Shown here one piece after another: positions 7,226 through 16,062 of a stretch of DNA of 32,000 nt. Made by a program: the position numbers and the translations under genes. The notes under the pieces were generated by a model, which saw nothing but the letters and a program-made list of their open reading frames with translations, did no database searches and had not been told where the DNA came from. Source of the stretch: an uncultured Synechococcus sp. (GTDB taxonomy: Bacteria; Cyanobacteriota; Cyanobacteriia; Thermosynechococcales; Thermosynechococcaceae); NCBI GenBank assembly GCA_964653145.1, contig CAZZCG010000009.1:37596-69595 (forward strand). Direction: 5' to 3'. The number at the start of each line of letters is the position of its first letter. Within the stretch, counting starts at the first letter, position 1.

Positions 7226-9799
7226 TTATTTAGCTAGAACAAAGTTAATGAGTTTACCGGGCACAACAATCACCTTTTTCACGGTTTGGTCTGCTAGGTA
7301 GCGCGCCCCAACTTCAGAGTTTTTTGCATAGGCTTCTAGCTCCTCGGCACTGGCCTGGGCGGGAACTTGAATCACCCCGCGAGTTTTACCCATCACCTGA
7401 ATCACTAGGGAAATTTCATCGGCCACTAGGGCAGTTGGATCAACACTGGGCCAGGCCTGGAGATGAATAGATTTTTGATGGTTTTGATTGGGTAACTGCT
7501 GCCACAGGTCTTCAGCAATGTGTGGGGCAAACGGTGACAGCAACAGCAACAGCGTTTCAATTCCCTCTTGATAGATTGGACTGGCAATTAAATCCGCCCC
7601 ATCACCCAGGGCATTACTCAACTTCATTAACTCCGAAATCGCAGTGTTGAACTGATAATCCGTCGCTAAATCCTCGCTAATTTCGTGAATTGCAGTGTGA
7701 ATTGCCCGACGAAGCTTTTTCTCATCAGGACTCAACTCAGAACTGGGGGCTTGAACTTGAGGATTTTTTTCAACATAGCCCGTGACCAACCGCCAAACTC
7801 GATTTAAGAAGCGAAACTGTCCTTCCACATCGGCATCATCCCACTCCAAATCTTTTTCGGGAGGGGCTTTGAACAAAATAAACATCCGGGCTGTATCTGC
7901 ACCATATTTTTCAATCACATCCCCCGGCGCGACACCGTTGTGTTTAGACTTGGACATTTTTTCATAGACCACATCCAAGGCAATCCCCGACTCGGGATCA
8001 ACAGGATTTGCCGGATCTTTGACGAGGCTGGGAATCACATATTTACCCGTTTGTGGGTTTTTGTAGGTTTTCCCCTGCACCATGCCCTGGGTTAGTAACC
8101 GCTGAAAGGGTTCACCAAAGTTGATCAGGCCCCGATCCTTGAGGACTTTTGTAAAAAAGCGGGAGTAAAGTAAATGTAAAATCGCGTGTTCAATGCCACC
8201 AACATACTGATCCACGGGCAACCAATCGTTCACTAATTCGGAACTAAACGGGGCCTGGTCATTTCGGGCATCGGCATAGCGCAGGAAATACCACGAGGAA
8301 TCAATAAACGTATCCATGGTGTCCGTTTCCCGCTTGGCTGGTTGACCGCAGCTAGGACATGGGACATTCACCCAATCCTCCAGTTGTGCCAGTGGAGAAG
8401 CGCCCCGACCAGTGAATTCGACATTTTCTGGTAAGACTACGGGTAAATCTGCTTCCGGTACCGGCACTGCACCACAATCGGGACAATGGATCACCGGAAT
8501 TGGTACACCCCAATAGCGTTGACGCGAAATGAGCCAATCCCGCAAGCGGTACTGAATTCGGGCCTTGCCCCAGCCTTTTGACTCGGCAAACTTAATAATT
8601 TCGTTTTTGGCAACGGCGGACTCAAGACCATCAAACTCCCCAGAATTGATCAGGATTCCTGGGTCGGTGTAGGCCTGATCCAATTTCACCAACTCTGGCC
8701 TGGCAGGGATAATTACTGTTGTGAGGGATAACTGATTCTGTTGGGCAAATTCATAATCCCGTTGATCGTGGGCCGGTACTCCCATCACTGCCCCAGTCCC
8801 GTACTCCACTAAGACATAATCGGCAATCCAGATGGGAATTTCTTCACCGGTAAAGGGGTTGATTGCACTTCCTCCTGTCGCCAGGCCCCGTTTTGGTTTA
8901 TCTTCGGCTGTCCGTTCTAGTTCCGATTCATGGCTAATGGATTCAATAAATTCCGTTACCTTGGCCTGGTTTGCGGGGGTAGTCACGGTCTGCGTCAAGG
9001 GATGTTCAGGAGCTAAAACCACATAGGTGACGCCAAACACTGTATCGGGTCGAGTCGTAAACACCCCAATTTTTTGATCAGAGCCGACAATCGGAAACTC
9101 CAAATACGCCCCCGTCGATTTGCCGATCCAGTTGGCCTGCATCAGTTTCACCCGTTCTGGCCAGCCGGTGAGGGTTTCTAAATCCTGTAACAGAGCCTCG
9201 GCATAGTCCGTAATTTTCAAAAACCATTGCCGCAGGAGTTTCCGCTCCACAATGGCCCCGGATCGCCAGGATCGCCCTTCACTGTCCACCTGTTCATTGG
9301 CCAAAACCGTTTGATCAATGGGATCCCAGTTCACCGCGGCTTCTTTTTGGTACGCTAACCCGGCCTGGAAAAACTGCAGAAACAGCCATTGTGTCCAGCG
9401 ATAATAGTCCGGGCGGCAGGTGGCCACTTCCCGCGACCAATCATAGGACAGCCCCAACCGTTTCAATTGGGTTTGCATCTGGGCAATGTTGGCCTCTGTC
9501 CATTGGGCTGGCGGAATTCCCCGTTCAATGGCGGCATTTTCGGCCGGCAAGCCAAAGGCATCCCACCCCATTGGATGTAGAACCCGATAGCCCTGCATTT
9601 TTTTGACCCGCGCAATCACATCAGTAATCGTGTAATTCCGGACATGGCCCATGTGGAGATTACCTGAGGGGTAGGGAAACATGGAGAGGGCATAAAATTT
9701 CGGCTGACTGGTATCCGTTCCCGTTAAATCTAAGCCAGACTCCTGCCAACAGGCCTGCCATTTGGGTTCAATGTCCTGGGGCTGATACCGATTCTCCAC
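7226..9799 (-). CDS. leuS: leucine--tRNA ligase
   Basis: 857-aa ORF with the class I signatures NLHMGH (HIGH-type) and KMSKS. It has LeuRS-typical length and an editing-domain insertion. Confidence 0.97.
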
Positions 9800-10015
9800 G
9801 GGTAATTCCTAATTTTGCAGTAAACATGAAAGGTCTAGGTTCTAGGGTACAGGCTCCAGGGAAAAGTTTGGCAGTAGGACAAGGGCGCAGGGCATTGCCA
9901 CTCAACCCTAAACAGGCCCCACTCACCAGGATTTTGTCAGAAACATAATTCCGGCCCTGCCCTCACTAAATTTTCTACGGGCTGAAAGGGTAATTTTGTT
10001 CCCACGATAATAGAT

Positions 10016-10277: not shown

Positions 10278-10676
10278 TTACCAACGCTCTAACTGTAAAC
10301 CCTCAATATAGCTAAAGTCAGAATCATCAGAAACTAATATCCAATTCTGGCTAATACATTGAGCAGCGATCCAAATATCATTTGTTGGAATAGGTCTGTC
10401 TTTTCTTTTTAGGTGCAATCTAACTTGGGCATAAACTAATCCACCCTCATTTGTAAGTGGTTTGACTGTGCAAGAAAAAATCAATGCTCCAAAAGCTGAA
10501 TAATTTTGTGAAGAGCGAGAGGAATTAAGCGCATCATCAAGTAGTTCACCAATAACCACTACAGGCAAGAAAACTTCGGGTAAATTTATAATTCTTTCCC
10601 TAAGAGAGGAGTCACCATTGAGATAACGAATCGCAACTGAAGTATCTAGGGCAATATCACCACTCATTGGCATCAA
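10278..10676 (-). CDS. vapC: PIN-domain VapC-type toxin
   Basis: 132-aa ORF with the PIN acidic residues in context (IALDTS, VIGELL, TNDIWIAA, SDDSDF). It overlaps the upstream small ORF by 20 nt. Confidence 0.85.
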   Translation of the reverse strand: MMPMSGDIALDTSVAIRYLNGDSSLRERIINLPEVFLPVVVIGELLDDALNSSRSSQNYSAFGALIFSCTVKPLTNEGGLVYAQVRLHLKRKDRPIPTNDIWIAAQCISQNWILVSDDSDFSYIEGLQLERW

Positions 10677-10866
10677 CCTGACGATAATCAGATTTTATAG
10701 TTTCTAGAATTTCCTGGGCATCCGAATCACTGAGAATCCCTGAAAGCTTCAGTAGGTTTTCATTATTTGTAGTGCTTTCTAACTGTTTAAGGAAATTAAA
10801 AACAGTTTCAATCTGCTCGTCAGAACTAGTCGAAATTTCTTGAAGAAGCTGTTCTCGTTTTTCCAT
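10657..10866 (-). CDS. putative cognate antitoxin (family not recognised)
   Basis: 69-aa acidic ORF directly upstream of vapC and overlapping it. The call rests on position and size only. Confidence 0.6.
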   Translation of the reverse strand: MEKREQLLQEISTSSDEQIETVFNFLKQLESTTNNENLLKLSGILSDSDAQEILETIKSDYRQVDANEW

Positions 10867-10898: not shown

Positions 10899-11022
10899 CC
10901 AGGCCCCGTAGGCTCCCATTCTAACCTCTGCCACCTGAGTCAAAATCCCCAGGCCCCGCCCCCAACTTTCTAAACTTCTCTAAAGAAAAGTCAATTTTGT
11001 TGAATTTTTATCAATAGACCAG
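10899..11022. repeat. 124-bp direct repeat, copy 1 (left of the R-M cassette)
   Basis: CCAGGCCCCGTAGGCTCCCATTCTAACCTCTGCCACCTGAGTCAAAATCCCCAGGCCCCGCCCCCAACTTTCTAAACTTCTCTAAAGAAAAGTCAATTTTGTTGAATTTTTATCAATAGACCAG matches 13167-13290 at every position but one (G/C in CCTGAGTC vs CCTGACTC). Confidence 0.95.
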
Positions 11023-11053
11023 CGAAAATTCTCTACGCCAGGCGAAGGGTCGT

Positions 11054-11059
11054 TAGAAT
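11054..11059 (+). promoter_or_regulatory. candidate -10 box (TAGAAT) for the REase-candidate gene
   Basis: GAAGGGTCGTTAGAATA lies 18 nt upstream of ATG 11078. The same block, GAAGGGTCGCTAGAATA, recurs upstream of the J-domain gene. No transcript data are available. Confidence 0.3.
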
Positions 11060-11077
11060 AAAGTTTTTACCTAAGTT

Positions 11078-11854
11078 ATGACTCCTTCCCAAAATGCTAA
11101 TTCTAAAAAAGATAAAGTGGATTTCAATGCAATTAAGCTGTCGTCAGACTCTTTGGATGTATTTCTAAGAGTTTTTCAAGATGCTTTTGAAGAATACAAT
11201 TATCAATTTCTTGATGCACACCGAGCAATTCTTACAAGCTGCTATCAACATATTGAACTTGCTCCATCTCTAACAGCAGCATCACAAGCACAATTAGCAA
11301 AGGCATGGTTGAAAAAATATAATGATGGGTATCAAAGTAGGATATCAAGACGGATTTCTAAAGCTTCTGGAACAAAAGTTGATCCGATTATTAGCAGTAT
11401 TATTAACGCAAGGCTGACCCACTTAACAAACCAACACCTAGAGCAAATTAATTATGCCCATAGACTCTCAATGTCTGCTGAAAATATTTTAGGGTTGCTG
11501 TTAGAAGAATTTTTAGCTGAACAGTTAAGCGATTATGGTTGGCATTGTTGTTGGGGAGAAACACTACGCCATGTAGATTTTTGTCACAATGACGGCTCAC
11601 TTTTACAAATCAAGAATCGTAGTAATTCAGAAAATAGTTCCTCATCAAGAGTAAGAATTAACAAGCCTATAGAAAAGTGGTTTAGAGTAGATGCTAAAAA
11701 AGGAAGCTATCAATGGTCATATTTTAACCAAAGATATGAAACAGATCGTTTTTCTGAAGAGAGATTTATTGCATTTGTACAACAAGTTTTGAAAAATAAT
11801 CCTGAAGCTCTGGCCGTAGAAGAAAGTAATCCTTGGAAAAACACAAGTAACTAA
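11078..11854 (+). CDS. putative type II restriction endonuclease (PD-(D/E)xK-like), family not recognised
   Basis: 258-aa ORF convergent with the C5-methyltransferase, with the two stop codons abutting (TAA 11852-54 and the complement of TCA 11855-57). The segment HVDFCHNDGSLLQIKNRS fits a D...(E/Q)xK nuclease core. The assignment is positional plus motif-level only. Confidence 0.5.
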   Translation: MTPSQNANSKKDKVDFNAIKLSSDSLDVFLRVFQDAFEEYNYQFLDAHRAILTSCYQHIELAPSLTAASQAQLAKAWLKKYNDGYQSRISRRISKASGTKVDPIISSIINARLTHLTNQHLEQINYAHRLSMSAENILGLLLEEFLAEQLSDYGWHCCWGETLRHVDFCHNDGSLLQIKNRSNSENSSSSRVRINKPIEKWFRVDAKKGSYQWSYFNQRYETDRFSEERFIAFVQQVLKNNPEALAVEESNPWKNTSN

Positions 11855-13108
11855 TCAAACAAAAGTTAGGGAGAGTTGACCAATAGACAAATTCTGAGTT
11901 TCAGGTTTAATATCTTTCATCCAGCTTTGGTCATCTGTATTCCGATAGCGAGAATACAGAAAATCTGGATAAATTATAGGTGTTTCGTCACTTAAGTGAG
12001 TTAATAACATTCTGGCAATCGCACGTCCTAAAGAACAAGGCACGGCATTTCCAACTTGACGATATTGATCAAGTAAAGACCCAGCAATGATCCAATTATC
12101 AGGAAATTCTTGAATCCGCTTATATTCTTCAATACTCAGAGGCCTATCTTCTTCTGGATGGGCTAAATCTGTGGCTGGCATAGCAGGATGAGTCACTAAA
12201 GTTGGAGAGGGTTTATCCCAGGCCAAGCGCCGATAAAAACCTGTTTTCCCACCTCCAGCAAAATAAGATGCTCCCAACGCCTCTTGCTGTAATTCTGCTG
12301 GTAAATCTCGCCAATATTGTCCAGGCCTAAGGAGTCGATAATACTTAAGTCGTTTTTCTGGGAATTTAACGAAATGATGTTCAGATTCAGATAAACCTGC
12401 CAAAGCCTCTCTTAAAGTACGCCATTTGGGAAGACTATATAGACCATTTTCTGAGTGGGTTGGAGTTAAGTAGGGAAGCTTTTGCCCATCACGACTACAA
12501 GCAATGACAACTCGTTCTCGTTGTTGAGGGGAGCCAAAGTTTGCTGCATTGTACAAATTAAATGAAACACTATATCCAGCTTCTTTAAGTTTTTGTATGA
12601 CAAATAGTAATGCACCACCTCGCTGTTCTTCTTGAGAAAGAGATGGAAAATCATAACCTCTCATTTCATGGGGACGATGTTTTAACGGTGCTGATAATAA
12701 TCCTCTAACATTTTCAATGACTAGAAACTTTGGATATAGCTCAATCACTAGGTCAATGAAGGTTAGAAATACATTACCCCGTTCATCATTAAATCCCTGA
12801 CGTTTTCCAGCACTACTAAAGGCCTGGCAAGGAGGACCACCGACAATGAGATCAATTTCATCCGTTGGTTTCAATCCGGCTTTTTCTCTGATTTCTGCGG
12901 CTGTGTAATCTCGAATATCACCGATTAAGGGAATATCCGGTCGGTTTATTTCAATGGTTTTGCGAGCGGCGGGATCAACTTCACAGGCCAGGATCACCTC
13001 AATTCCCTCTTTCTCCAGGCCAAGGTCTAATCCCATACAACCCGAAAAAAAACTCAAGGCCTTCAATTCAGGTTTACTAGCGGAATGAGTCTGACGATGT
13101 TGATTCAT
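11855..13108 (-). CDS. DNA (cytosine-5)-methyltransferase
   Basis: 417-aa ORF with the full C5-MTase motif set: [10 protein letters not shown] (I), GGPPCQAFS (IV), ENVRGL (VI), QQRERVVI (VIII) and GNAVP (X). Confidence 0.93.
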
Positions 13109-13166: not shown

Positions 13167-13290
13167 CCAGGCCCCGTAGGCTCCCATTCTAACCTCTGCC
13201 ACCTGACTCAAAATCCCCAGGCCCCGCCCCCAACTTTCTAAACTTCTCTAAAGAAAAGTCAATTTTGTTGAATTTTTATCAATAGACCAG
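13167..13290. repeat. 124-bp direct repeat, copy 2 (right of the R-M cassette)
   Basis: See copy 1: 123/124 identical, same orientation. Confidence 0.95.
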
Positions 13291-13321
13291 AAAAAACTCA
13301 TCAGGACAAAAGAAGGGTCGC

Positions 13322-13327
13322 TAGAAT
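13322..13327 (+). promoter_or_regulatory. candidate -10 box (TAGAAT) for the J-domain/HNH operon
   Basis: GAAGGGTCGCTAGAATA lies 21 nt upstream of ATG 13349 and parallels the block at 11044-11060. Confidence 0.3.
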
Positions 13328-13348
13328 AATATTTTTTAGTGCAAGACT

Positions 13349-13900
13349 ATGGCCTCATCATCCAAAAAGCTCACCCCAAGGATTGAAGCTGAGATTTCTC
13401 GACTATCAGGGGTTCTTAGCTGTGATCCAAAAATTCTCAGTGATTTCGCCTACTTTGTTAAGGGGATTAAACCACCGCCACCACCTAAACCTAAAGCCTT
13501 AACTTTTCTACAACTCAAAGAAGCCGTATATAAGCATTTCAACGTGAAAACCACTCCTGAGCTTAAAGAGTCGGGCAATTTTCAGATGGCTACAAATGGG
13601 ATGAAGTTGAACTTAGGAAAAAAAGAGGCCTGGGAGGATGTTTATCGGAAGTGGATTGGTATTTTGCCCAACGAGGACGGAGAAACAGGCAAGGACTGCA
13701 TCAACGGTATCAACATCTTTAAATATGATTTGCCTTGGCGGGTGTTTGGCCTGGATCGGCATACGGCAACTGAAGCAGAAATTAAGGAAGCCTATCGCAA
13801 TTTAAGTAAGAAATATCATCCTGATAATCCTGAAACCGGAGATGATCGAATTTTTCAACGGATTAATATTTTCTATCGTAGTTTATTAGGTAAAGGTTAA
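13349..13900 (+). CDS. J-domain (DnaJ-like) protein with an unrecognised N-terminal region
   Basis: 183-aa ORF. The C-terminal ~55 aa, VFGLDRHTATEAEIKEAYRNLSKKYHPDNPETGDDRIFQRINIFYRSL, form a canonical J domain with the HPD tripeptide. The N-terminal ~125 aa have no motif I recognise and include a PPPPPKPK linker. Confidence 0.8.
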   Translation: MASSSKKLTPRIEAEISRLSGVLSCDPKILSDFAYFVKGIKPPPPPKPKALTFLQLKEAVYKHFNVKTTPELKESGNFQMATNGMKLNLGKKEAWEDVYRKWIGILPNEDGETGKDCINGINIFKYDLPWRVFGLDRHTATEAEIKEAYRNLSKKYHPDNPETGDDRIFQRINIFYRSLLGKG

Positions 13901-14943
13901 TGGCAAAGCAAATATGGATTACTTCAGCCAAGTTGATAGAAATTTTGAGGATTTCTGAGAGGGAGTTACATGAAATTGAGAAATTTTTTGATGCTGATCC
14001 CTACGATAAGTGGAACCTTGAGAATGGAAAGGATTACAGAATTATCAATCAATCAAATGGATTAAGGGAATACACAGATACAGGAGCATATGCTATCGCC
14101 TCGTATTTGGAGCACAGAAACAGATCAGAAAATAAAGGTTTTCTAGGTTGGATCAGAGAGTTCGTTCGCAAGCTGAAGGGAGACGTTCGCAAAACATTCA
14201 TTAAAGAGAAAATCCTTTATAATAGCTCATCCTTAGTAAAGCGCAGAAATTACTTTTACTTATGTGAGAAGGACTTGATCTCTATCTTTGGCACAAGAAA
14301 GGACTATTTTTATAAGATTTTTGAGTTGGCGCAAAAGGAAGAAAAACCTTTGATTGTTGATTTGGATTATGATGACACTTTTGGAAATGGAATGAGATAT
14401 TATTCTACAAGTGGCATTTTAAAGTTAGCCAAGGTATTTAATCGAGAACTAACTAATAAAAATCGCCAAGAATGGTGTGAAGATGTTGGTGCGGTTATTA
14501 TACCTTTTACACATGAAATCGAGAAAATACATATACAGCGAAATCAGAGAATTACCTCTACTAAAAATGCTGCCAAGAAACGGGATAAATCTAGATGTCG
14601 CATTACTAAAGAAAGTCCACGGGATAGTAGTATTTCCCCAATTAAACTAGCTGCTCATCATTTATACTCTGCGGCCCACTATCCCCATTTAGCTGACTCT
14701 GTAGATAATATCATTACAATTAAGGAGGAAATCCACGATCATTTTCATCAAGTTATGGGTGGAAAAGGTAAGCCCTGTACGATTGATGACTTTATTAACT
14801 ACATCAAGAATTACTATCCTGATAAATTAGAATTGATTACTTGGTTGCACGGTCAAAAAGCTAAAATTCCCTCAGAGCCTCTTTCAAAAAATGCACCAAT
14901 GGTCTTATATTTACCACCAAAGCAAGTGATGCAAAACAATTAA
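13900..14943 (+). CDS. HNH-motif nuclease with a duplicated N-terminal module
   Basis: 347-aa ORF whose ATG overlaps the upstream stop (TAATG). The C-terminal segment CRITKES...LAAHHLYSAAHYPHLADSVDNIITIKEEIHDHFH matches the HNH pattern (HH...N...H..H). The N-terminus holds two similar ~65-aa segments, ending LREYTDTGAYAIASYL and MRYYSTSGILKLAKVF. Confidence 0.75.
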   Translation: MAKQIWITSAKLIEILRISERELHEIEKFFDADPYDKWNLENGKDYRIINQSNGLREYTDTGAYAIASYLEHRNRSENKGFLGWIREFVRKLKGDVRKTFIKEKILYNSSSLVKRRNYFYLCEKDLISIFGTRKDYFYKIFELAQKEEKPLIVDLDYDDTFGNGMRYYSTSGILKLAKVFNRELTNKNRQEWCEDVGAVIIPFTHEIEKIHIQRNQRITSTKNAAKKRDKSRCRITKESPRDSSISPIKLAAHHLYSAAHYPHLADSVDNIITIKEEIHDHFHQVMGGKGKPCTIDDFINYIKNYYPDKLELITWLHGQKAKIPSEPLSKNAPMVLYLPPKQVMQNN

Positions 14944-14971: not shown

Positions 14972-15071
14972 CTACAACCGCCCGATGGCAATCCCCATGA
15001 GCATGACCCGATCAATCACATAAATCACCCCATTATCAGCCTCAATATCTTGGATGATCACCGTGGCATTT
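14972..15071 (-). pseudogene. orphan 3'-terminal fragment of a diverged cupS/fasciclin gene (33 codons including stop)
   Basis: The reverse strand reads [32 protein letters not shown], versus [32 protein letters not shown] at the true cupS end (15640-15739). The core 94 nt (14978-15071 vs 15646-15739) differ at 10 positions. Confidence 0.85.
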
Positions 15072-15090: not shown

Positions 15091-15303
15091 TCAAATCTCA
15101 AATAAATGACGAGGTAGCCCTGATTGGCGAATGATAGATTGTAATGTGCCGATTTTGAGTTCGGGATGATTGGGAACGGGGACAGTGATTGTTGTGTCTT
15201 TTGTTTTAAGTTGCATAATGATATGGCTTCCGCTTTGCCGTATTTCGATAAAGTCATAGGCTGCCAGAATTTTGCACACCTCGCGTCCAGATAAAATACG
15301 CAA
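15091..15303 (-). CDS. hicA: HicA-family mRNA-interferase toxin
   Basis: The track ORF (to 15387) overlaps hicB. I start at the TTG at complement of 15301-15303, 1 nt after the hicB stop. The product (M)RILSGREVCKILAAYDFIEIRQSGSHIIMQ... matches the HicA consensus (LSGxEvxKxL...GFxxxRQxGSH). Confidence 0.8.
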   Translation of the reverse strand: MRILSGREVCKILAAYDFIEIRQSGSHIIMQLKTKDTTITVPVPNHPELKIGTLQSIIRQSGLPRHLFEI

Positions 15304-15304
15304 C

Positions 15305-15532
15305 TTACCCAACAGTAATTTCCAACCGGGTGATAAAAATCTCTGAACGTAAGCGATTGGTAATTTCCGAAGGATCGGCAACATCAAAGAAAAGTTCTAA
15401 GGCTTCAATCAAGTTGTTTTTGGCTTCTTCAATCGTGTTTCCTTGGCTAGCAATATCAAGTTCGGGACATAGGGATACATATCCATCCCCTTCTCGTTCG
15501 ATAATTGCAGTAAAAGGCTGAACTTGTTTCAT
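15305..15532 (-). CDS. hicB: HicB-like (UPF0150) antitoxin
   Basis: MKQVQPFTAIIEREGDGYVSLCPELDIASQGNTIEEAKNNLIEALELFF is typical of a HicB N-terminal domain. I prefer ATG 15532 over the track start at 15565. It lies directly upstream of hicA. Confidence 0.8.
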   Translation of the reverse strand: MKQVQPFTAIIEREGDGYVSLCPELDIASQGNTIEEAKNNLIEALELFFDVADPSEITNRLRSEIFITRLEITVG

Positions 15533-15639
15533 TGGTTTTCTATTTGTTTTTATTAGGATAATCAAATTTTACTTGAGACGGACTATACCTCCCAGCTTAA
15601 ACGATTGAGCTTTGAGCAGCAAAAATTACAAAAAGGTAC

Positions 15640-16062
15640 TTAAAGCCGCCCAATGGCAATTCCCATCAGCATCACCCGATCAATTACATGAATCACGCCA
15701 TTGTCCGCCTCAATATCTGGGATGATCACCGTGGCATTTTTGGCTTCAAACTTACCATTACTGGCATTAATCGGAATCACAGAGCCTTCCACCGAGGTTA
15801 ACTTGTCCACACCGACTAAATCCGCTTTTTTGTAGATTCCTGGCACCACATGAAATGTCAAAATCCGAGCCAACTGCGGGGTATTTTGCACCAAGGTTTG
15901 AATCGTGCCACCGGGTAACTGAGCAAACGCAGCATCCACGGGCGCAAATACGGTAAAGGGGCCTGGGCTGTTGAGGACATCCACTAAACCCGCAACCTTC
16001 ACAGCCGTCACTAAGGTTTGAAAATTCTCATTCCCGACTGCAATTTCCACAATCGTTGCCAT
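15640..16062 (-). CDS. cupS: fasciclin (FAS1)-domain protein; position and size consistent with CupS of NDH-1MS
   Basis: 140-aa ORF with FAS1 signatures ([23 protein letters not shown]). It sits immediately 3' of cupA, where cupS sits in the Synechocystis ndhF3-ndhD3-cupA-cupS operon. As far as I recall, CupS has a fasciclin-like fold. The name is a positional inference. Confidence 0.7.

Follow-up and report, generated by a model that had tools for sequence, protein, structure and literature searches.

J domains dock through their HPD motif on Hsp70 chaperones such as DnaK and trigger ATP hydrolysis, upon which Hsp70 clamps the client presented by the J protein. In Escherichia coli, the small class-C J protein HscB is encoded in an operon with its client IscU and delivers that client to the Hsp70 HscA. 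A phage-encoded J-domain protein, Rki of phage RB43, redirects host DnaK and targets the stability of sigma-32. Toxin-antitoxin-chaperone (TAC) systems comprise three genes, a SecB-like chaperone together with a toxin-antitoxin (TA) pair of the HigBA or MqsRA type. The anti-phage protein bNACHT25 needs host DnaJ to sense phage (PMC12169576), GTPase-centric conflict systems of the GAP1-N2 type contain HSP70, GrpE and a DnaJ-fused protein (PMC7159879), and in sacsin DnaJ stands beside a HEPN domain (PMC3710099). Here we describe a pair of genes, named J and H, that encode a small J-domain protein and an HNH nuclease-like protein in a stretch of 32,000 nucleotides (nt) from an uncultured Synechococcus sp. 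(contig CAZZCG010000009.1, positions 37,596 to 69,595; hereafter the window). PADLOC and literature searches returned no system made of a J-domain protein and an HNH nuclease, and the statement of the first-pass annotation that no named defence or TA system has this make-up holds for PADLOC, Pfam, NCBIfam and the literature.

A sequence check of the window confirmed both open reading frames (ORFs) on the + strand where they had been placed, together with their coordinates, the TAATG overlap and the intact HPD. The pair is composed as follows (aa, amino acids; AF2, AlphaFold2 model):

13349..13900, + strand: gene J, 183-aa class-C (type III) J-domain protein (ORF, Pfam, 144 homologues, AF2).
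13900..14943, + strand: gene H, 347 aa, predicted DNA-binding HNH nuclease-like protein (ORF, 84 homologues, AF2).
13898..13902, + strand: TAATG stop/start overlap, in which TAA (13898-13900) shares a base with ATG (13900-13902); translational coupling.

The two genes are strictly associated. A scan from the H side with a peptide pattern, run on one genome per GTDB species, returned 50 loci, five of which were set aside (two lie at the end of a contig, one keeps a truncated remnant of H, and two are short partial hits outside the family). The other 45 hold a full-length H whose upstream DNA can be read, and in all 45 J is located immediately upstream on the same strand as a full-length homologue (E 1e-39 to 1e-63); the genes are mostly ~2 nt apart and overlap by 4 nt in six of these loci. 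Checks from the J side found H downstream in four cases of four (Synechocystis LEGE, Microcystis, a thermophilic Synechococcus and Cyanobacterium aponinum). This pairing is far beyond chance, and no conserved third gene was found beside it. The first-pass annotation had proposed a translationally coupled, uncharacterised two-gene module and had named co-location of homologues across genomes as a check on it; the overlap and the 45/45 pairing bear the module out, and homologues proved to be co-located from either side. Altogether, about 50 species with the pair were recovered across the phylum, a rough prevalence figure, as the sensitivity of the peptide pattern was estimated from alignment A1 at ~60%.

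J and H also share their history. Pairwise distances of the two proteins correlate (r = 0.84), and both give the same three major clusters, or subtypes, over which genus names are scattered; Phormidesmis is represented in three clusters, Thermosynechococcaceae in two. For closely related genomes compared in pairs outside the clade of the window, dS values are broadly alike for J and H, with omega mostly 0.04-0.26. The analyses thus show one self-contained operon, confined to cyanobacteria and chromosomal, that is inherited and diversifies as a unit.

The association extends to a divergent relative. Protein P0321 resembles H in the HNH region only (BLASTP 8e-11) and has an unrelated N-terminus, and it is preceded by a 203-aa protein with DnaJ at its C-terminus (29.4 bits, which exceeds the cut-off) and no other domain. 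The metagenome contig concerned (L060, 322-2835) encodes, in this order, a 281-aa zinc-ribbon/membrane-like protein, this 203-aa protein and the 324-aa relative with the HNH region of H. The distant zinc-ribbon HNH relatives P0336 and P0332 have no J neighbour and occur in phage-like contexts, and the link to J is therefore not general to HNH_2-like proteins. Taken together, the strict pairing, its recurrence with P0321 and the J-less distant relatives suggest that, within this branch of HNH proteins, selection acts on the J-HNH link itself.

Protein J falls into two parts:

13349..13729, + strand: N-terminal family-specific region of J, aa 1-127, presumed client-binding part (alignment A3, AF2).
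13730..13888, + strand: J domain, aa ~128-180, helices I-III, HPD at 13817-13825 (Pfam, invariance, Foldseek).

The sole Pfam match in J is PF00226 (39 bits against a cut-off of 27.8, aa 132-179), which is also matched by all 102 aligned family members. Residues H157, P158 and D159 of the HPD motif (aa 157-159, nt 13817-13825) are invariant in the 102 sequences of alignment A3, as are the basic residues of helix II. The AF2 model, built on 102 homologues, has a pLDDT of 91.5, and its J domain superposes on those of Sis1, DnaJ, Tim14 and HscB with a root-mean-square deviation (rmsd) of 1.2-2.6 A and a Foldseek probability of ~1.0. The modelled domain consists of helices I-III without helix IV, and the protein ends four residues past helix III. 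No glycine/phenylalanine (G/F) region, zinc finger or DnaJ C-terminal domain was found by Pfam, NCBIfam or AF2, which places J among the class-C J proteins; NCBIfam DnaJ equivalogs score only 15-30 bits on it, against cut-offs of 150-620. The family comprises 144 homologues (clusters), all cyanobacterial, all of ~175-220 aa and all with PF00226. Synechocystis PCC 6803 Sll1384, considered as a counterpart of J, was rejected, since its J domain is N-terminal and combined with tetratricopeptide repeats (TPR), which makes it a different family. The N-terminal 127 residues are modelled as a confident fold (a helical hairpin, a Pro/Lys linker, a helical bundle and a β-hairpin) with no fold match in the PDB; the β-hairpin carries the conserved motif GILPxExGExGxxCINGINIFKY, and weak matches to HHD_RTEL1 fall in this region in 15 of the 102 members. 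Judged by its sequence and predicted structure, J carries every feature needed to engage Hsp70.

Protein H is organised around an HNH core preceded by two similar units:

14587..14757, + strand: HNH core, aa ~230-286, with C233, H253-H254, N270, H279 and H283 (invariance, AF2, HNH_2, BFVD).
13912..14124, + strand: module 1, aa ~5-75, β-α-α-β-β-α, winged-helix/Bro-N/KilA-N/antirepressor-like (AF2, BFVD).
14230..14454, + strand: module 2, aa ~111-185, in which the topology of module 1 is repeated (AF2).
14458..14583, + strand: long helix, aa 187-228 (42 residues; AF2).
14758..14940, + strand: conserved C-terminal helical subdomain, with helices 295-305 and 310-322 (alignments A1 and A2, AF2).

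The window protein itself has no match in Pfam, NCBIfam, PADLOC or PHROGs, no HNH or HNH_2 match at E<=1, and only chance matches in PDB sequence searches with either the single sequence or a profile. Its family provides the evidence. Residues C233, H253, H254, N270, H279 and H283 are invariant in the 84 homologues, all cyanobacterial and of ~320-355 aa. In the AF2 model (pLDDT 92, pTM 0.81), strands 250-254 and 271-275 and helix 276-285 form a ββα-metal motif, where H253 and H254 end the first strand, N270 stands just before the second and H279 and H283 lie in the helix. Sub-threshold matches to HNH_2 (PF13391; 12-16 bits, cut-off 21) occur in 48 of the 84 members, always at aa ~228-279 and extending over positions 1-62 of the 66-position profile. 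When a family profile was run against 1.84 billion representatives, it reached, beyond the ~80 members, more than 1,200 proteins that align at positions ~200-320 only; those scanned that exceed the Pfam HNH/HNH_2 cut-offs (P0336, 31.5 bits; P0337, 29.4; P0350, 31.6; P0345, 32.5; P0346, 32.6) were reached at E 1e-11 to 1e-13. Fold searches of BFVD returned phage HNH proteins (rmsd 1.8-2.3 A over 75-90 residues, probability 1.0). The CxxC pairs of the classical HNH zinc finger are lost, with C233 alone kept. The invariants, the predicted fold, the sub-threshold HNH_2 matches and the profile link together support H as an HNH protein, likely an active nuclease, and by sequence its relatives make up a new family of HNH proteins, with ~80 clusters when grouped at 50% identity. 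The C-terminal HNH motif reported by the first-pass annotation is upheld by these lines of evidence; it is not at the extreme C-terminus, as a conserved helical tail of ~60 aa follows residues ~230-286.

Residues 1-228 of H have no match in the PDB, Pfam or PADLOC, including McrA and known modification-dependent reader domains. The N-terminal modules gave weak BFVD fold matches to phage antirepressor, KilA-N, Bro-N and ‘regulatory’ proteins, and DUF2316 matches module 1 below threshold in seven members; the two units are presumed to be DNA-binding modules. The C-terminal subdomain bears the motif MGGxxKPCTIDDFIxFVxxYYP and, in this subtype, the tail ‘P(H/M)VLYLP’. Partial relatives of H without a J gene exist as well: only the C-terminal half is present in Phormidium pseudopriestleyi (L047, 3317-3829), and matches of ~60 aa to the post-HNH helical subdomain occur in other cyanobacteria (L048, 6001-6186; L050, 6001-6174), so this subdomain may also occur in other proteins.

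The reading that we favour, tentatively and a little short of an even chance, is that J is an adaptor that couples DnaK to H in an accessory, conflict-type role. J would be an adaptor dedicated to H and produced at a constant ratio to it; the N-terminal domain of J would bind H, and the J domain would hand H over to DnaK. As the J domain would thereby load H onto DnaK, the nuclease activity of H, or its assembly on DNA, would be licensed or restrained by the Hsp70 cycle. In a more speculative step, free DnaK capacity could be the switch of a conflict-type (defence or addiction) module. The conflict-type role, as opposed to one in core DNA metabolism, is suggested by the patchy spread, at least three co-diversifying subtypes, second copies, H pseudogenes, the phage-type HNH and diverged H alleles.

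Two J-H pairs, of different subtypes, are present in C. aponinum (PHV61371, PHV64329; L064, 3418-5206, and P0080) and in one Phormidesmis metagenome-assembled genome (MAG; L030, L044). The second H of C. aponinum is 401 aa long, carries an additional domain at its C-terminus and is again close to hicA, at a distance of a few hundred bases; longer variants of H reach 445-468 aa (P0248, P0229). With J intact, H is frameshifted or interrupted in the MAGs L030 (5995-7016) and L041 (6001-7041) and is cut to 163 aa in C. aponinum UTEX 3221 (P0359), which may reflect either decay of H or assembly errors. J and H lie ~8-9 GC points under their flanks in almost every genome, in hosts of 25% to 50% GC; the mean offset is 7.6 points for J and 9.1 for H (46 loci, flanks of 29% to 61% GC), and it follows the GC content of the host, with no fixed foreign composition.

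The divergence of H among close relatives was compared in three genomes: the window, Synechococcus sp. PCC 6312 (L053) and a metagenomic relative (L055). Here H (window 13900-14943; L053, 8001-9044; L055, 2723-3766) is only 67-71% identical, whereas J is 88-95%, fasciclin and ChpXY 95-98% and NdhD 85-94% identical; between the window and PCC 6312 the values are 95% for J and 67% for H. DNA identity falls from ~0.9 to ~0.7 at the J/H junction, is lowest, at 0.45-0.55, over 14240-14660 (about H aa 115-255) and rises again across the HNH core. The peak of divergence spans module 2 and the following helix, and aa 186-250 form the least conserved stretch (42-51% identical). Synonymous differences are saturated in every segment of H (pS 0.65-1.0), so dN/dS of these alleles is not computable. 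There are nonetheless zero indels in H, and all family invariants are retained, which suggests positive selection on the hyperdivergent H. The divergence could stem from alleles that are old and maintained (balanced), from recombination limited to H or from diversifying selection. In the 5' part of J, positions 13371-13490 (codons ~8-47) are 97-98% identical in DNA between the window and PCC 6312, against ~85% for the rest of the locus, and only 62-80% identical to L055, which suggests a recent recombination tract ending inside J.

The surroundings of the pair in the window were as the first-pass annotation had described them, with vapBC, a SinI-like restriction endonuclease (REase) plus C5-methyltransferase (MTase), hicAB and AT-rich DNA (33-44% GC in the locus, against ~50% in the flanks); the argument for a defence role that had been drawn from them was not supported, as the restriction-modification (R-M) cassette and hicAB are independent repeat-flanked insertions and, in 35 other genomes, most of the neighbours have housekeeping functions. 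A 170-nt direct repeat (D1; 10899-11068 and 13167-13336, 91% identical) lies on either side of the SinI-like REase and C5-MTase (11078-13108), and a 99-nt direct repeat (14973-15071 and 15641-15739, 88% identical), in which the 3' end of the fasciclin gene is duplicated, lies on either side of hicAB (15091-15565). The latter looks like a cassette insertion with a long target duplication. No flanking repeats of the J-H pair's own were found. The gene order in PCC 6312 is CBS-J-H-(fasciclin fragment)-hicAB-fasciclin-chpXY-ndhD-ndhF, without an R-M system, and that in L055 is REase-MTase-J-H-fasciclin, with fasciclin intact and without hicAB. Since R-M is absent from PCC 6312 and hicAB from L055, J-H was in place beside fasciclin-chpXY-ndhD-ndhF before the cassettes arrived. 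A ~130-nt remnant in PCC 6312 matches the 5' end of the MTase gene (12958-13087 against L053 6937-7066, 79%), and the fasciclin fragment beside hicAB is longer in that genome (104 aa). On the other side of the locus, vapBC (10278-10866, - strand; a 132-aa PIN toxin and a 69-aa antitoxin, in overlapping genes) lies at the edge of the GC-poor DNA, which begins near 10000, immediately past leuS (7226-9799). This side has also been rearranged, as PCC 6312 has other genes (CM_1, CBS) upstream of J. The second copy of the 170-nt repeat lies within the leader of the operon:

13167..13348, + strand: upstream/promoter region of the J-H operon, conserved in both close relatives (alignment with PCC 6312 and L055).

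This region contains a TAGAAT -10-like box ~25 nt 5' of the J start codon, and a promoter-like site at 13303-13330 scored in a promoter scan, not above chance. One copy of the repeat is thus the J-operon promoter/leader itself, and the other ends 9 nt before the ATG of the REase gene, so that the inserted REase is apparently driven by a duplicate of the J promoter. No Rfam RNA, tRNA integration site or terminator was found in the window. The 134 nearest neighbours from the 35 loci include genes for DUF554, gamma-glutamyl transpeptidase, histidine kinases and PPDK among the mostly housekeeping functions, and about a dozen that are TA- or defence-like (PIN three times, Uma2 twice and scattered singleton PADLOC hits).

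Several of these results weigh against the favoured reading. A recurrent defence-island location of J-H was not found among those 134 neighbours. No J-H relatives were found in PLSDB plasmids, in 50,697 GenBank phage records or in IMG/VR, and neither J nor H matched PADLOC (no family of PADLOC-DB v2.0 at E<=0.1). The position of the pair is stable among close relatives, the hyperdivergent H is limited to the three-genome clade, with J and H diverging alike in other close genome pairs, and between the window and PCC 6312 the N-terminus of J does not change along with the variable part of H. Both genes are under strong purifying selection, which fits either role, and clusters confined to one phylum and roughly following its phylogeny fit a lineage-specific cellular function equally well. 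Such a function, somewhat unlikely in our judgement, would make H a sequence- or structure-specific nuclease or nickase in repair, recombination or chromosome handling, for which J recruits DnaK to assemble or disassemble nucleoprotein; DnaJ and DnaK likewise remodel the lambda O-P-DnaB complex and monomerise plasmid RepA. It would account for a chromosomal, single-phylum pair that is absent from the plasmids and phages searched, sits stably among housekeeping neighbours under strong purifying selection and, as regards J, is very common in Microcystis (108 contigs). It sits less well with the patchy distribution (~50 GTDB species by a pattern of ~60% sensitivity), the several subtypes, the second copies within one genome, the H pseudogenes, the hyperdivergent H alleles in close relatives and the constant GC deficit. 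The explicit immunity or addiction version of DnaK coupling, in which J keeps the HNH nuclease under DnaK and flooding of DnaK with other clients by phage or proteotoxic stress sets the nuclease free or lifts its restraint and leads to DNA cutting and abortive infection, we regard as unlikely; were it true, the hyperdivergent aa ~111-250 of H would be the surface, target- or escape-facing, on which diversifying selection acts.

The order of the genes, with a small protein first, a larger nuclease second and an overlapping stop/start, is also that of a type II-like TA pair, where J would be a labile antitoxin on an HNH toxin and the J domain would tie antitoxin folding or turnover to DnaK, as in TAC. 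The extra copies, the decayed H copies beside an intact J, and the TA cassettes gathered around the locus here and in L064 agree with it, but J has no recognisable DNA-binding or antitoxin fold, no TA family in Pfam, NCBIfam or PADLOC was matched by J or H, the copy number is low, plasmids lack the pair, and J is more conserved than H, which is unusual for antitoxins; we consider such a pair quite unlikely. DNA-binding modules joined to an HNH core, a presumed recognition region that diverges fast, an adjoining 5-methylcytosine R-M system in this clade and one homologue labelled McrA by JGI (an automatic label) would suit a stand-alone Type IV (McrA-like) or other restriction endonuclease for which J is a dispensable folding helper. 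Obligate pairing with J in ~50 genomes and in a divergent family is unexpected for a dispensable helper, and no sequence match to McrA or to restriction models of PADLOC or Pfam was obtained, which leaves this option very unlikely. Least probable, to a degree that we would call highly improbable, is a phage-derived homing-endonuclease gene, selfish or domesticated, that travels with a helper gene: the HNH has its nearest relatives among free-standing phage enzymes (e.g., P0336, beside a MazG-like gene), the N-terminal modules resemble phage antirepressor/KilA-N proteins and GC is low, but the phage records and IMG/VR hold no relatives, the pair lies outside any intron, intein or prophage and lacks flanking repeats of its own, and three diverged genomes keep it at the same locus (fasciclin-chpXY-ndhD-ndhF) with both genes under purifying selection. 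The stand-alone restriction or homing enzyme that the first-pass annotation had offered as the more mundane option is weakened by the strict pairing and the lack of phage and plasmid relatives.

If the adaptor reading is true, H would be the first nuclease that brings its own J-domain adaptor to the host Hsp70 machine, and substitutions of HPD to QPD and of His to Ala would give a direct genetic handle on chaperone gating of DNA cleavage. The idea of ‘guarding’ by DnaJ/DnaK (PMC12169576) would be extended to a system-encoded co-chaperone, and the sparse catalogue of cyanobacterial defence and addiction systems would gain a phylum-specific addition, including bloom-forming Microcystis and industrial Arthrospira. 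Even under a housekeeping function, an orphan class-C J protein gains a testable partner and client, and a new HNH family is defined.

Compared with the described systems, J-H is closest in layout to HscB-IscU, as a J domain is joined to a family-specific, presumably client-binding domain and the presumed client is encoded in the same operon; it differs in the C-terminal position of a J domain without helix IV, in an HNH nuclease as the presumed client and in the absence of a dedicated Hsp70 nearby. With bNACHT25 it would share the Hsp70/Hsp40 network as the input to a DNA-degrading effector, a chaperone-guarded nuclease; that system relies on housekeeping DnaJ and a NACHT/STAND sensor, whereas J-H encodes its own J protein without an NTPase, and its defence role is a proposal. 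TAC resembles it in that a toxic enzyme, as proposed for H, is controlled via a dedicated, operon-encoded chaperone component, but J-H consists of two genes, one for a J-domain co-chaperone and one for an HNH protein, and no antitoxin can be recognised in it. GAP1-N2 systems and sacsin likewise place a J domain within predicted conflict systems or beside a nuclease-family domain; they are large multi-gene or multi-domain assemblies of actinobacteria, firmicutes and eukaryotes, and a small J protein together with an HNH nuclease occurs in none of them. Like McrA-type and free-standing phage HNH enzymes (PF01844, PF13391), H combines a ββα-metal core of the His-His/Asn/His kind with separate DNA-binding modules, but it scores below Pfam thresholds, has lost the CxxC pairs, carries an extra C-terminal helical subdomain, has an obligate J partner and is not found in phages. 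J, finally, is like Rki a small protein with the J domain as its only known domain, and matches J-only PHROG families; unlike the phage-borne Rki, it is chromosomal and always linked to a nuclease gene. We infer that J-H belongs to a known kind of system, the dedicated J protein with its client, in which a nuclease as the presumed client would be new.

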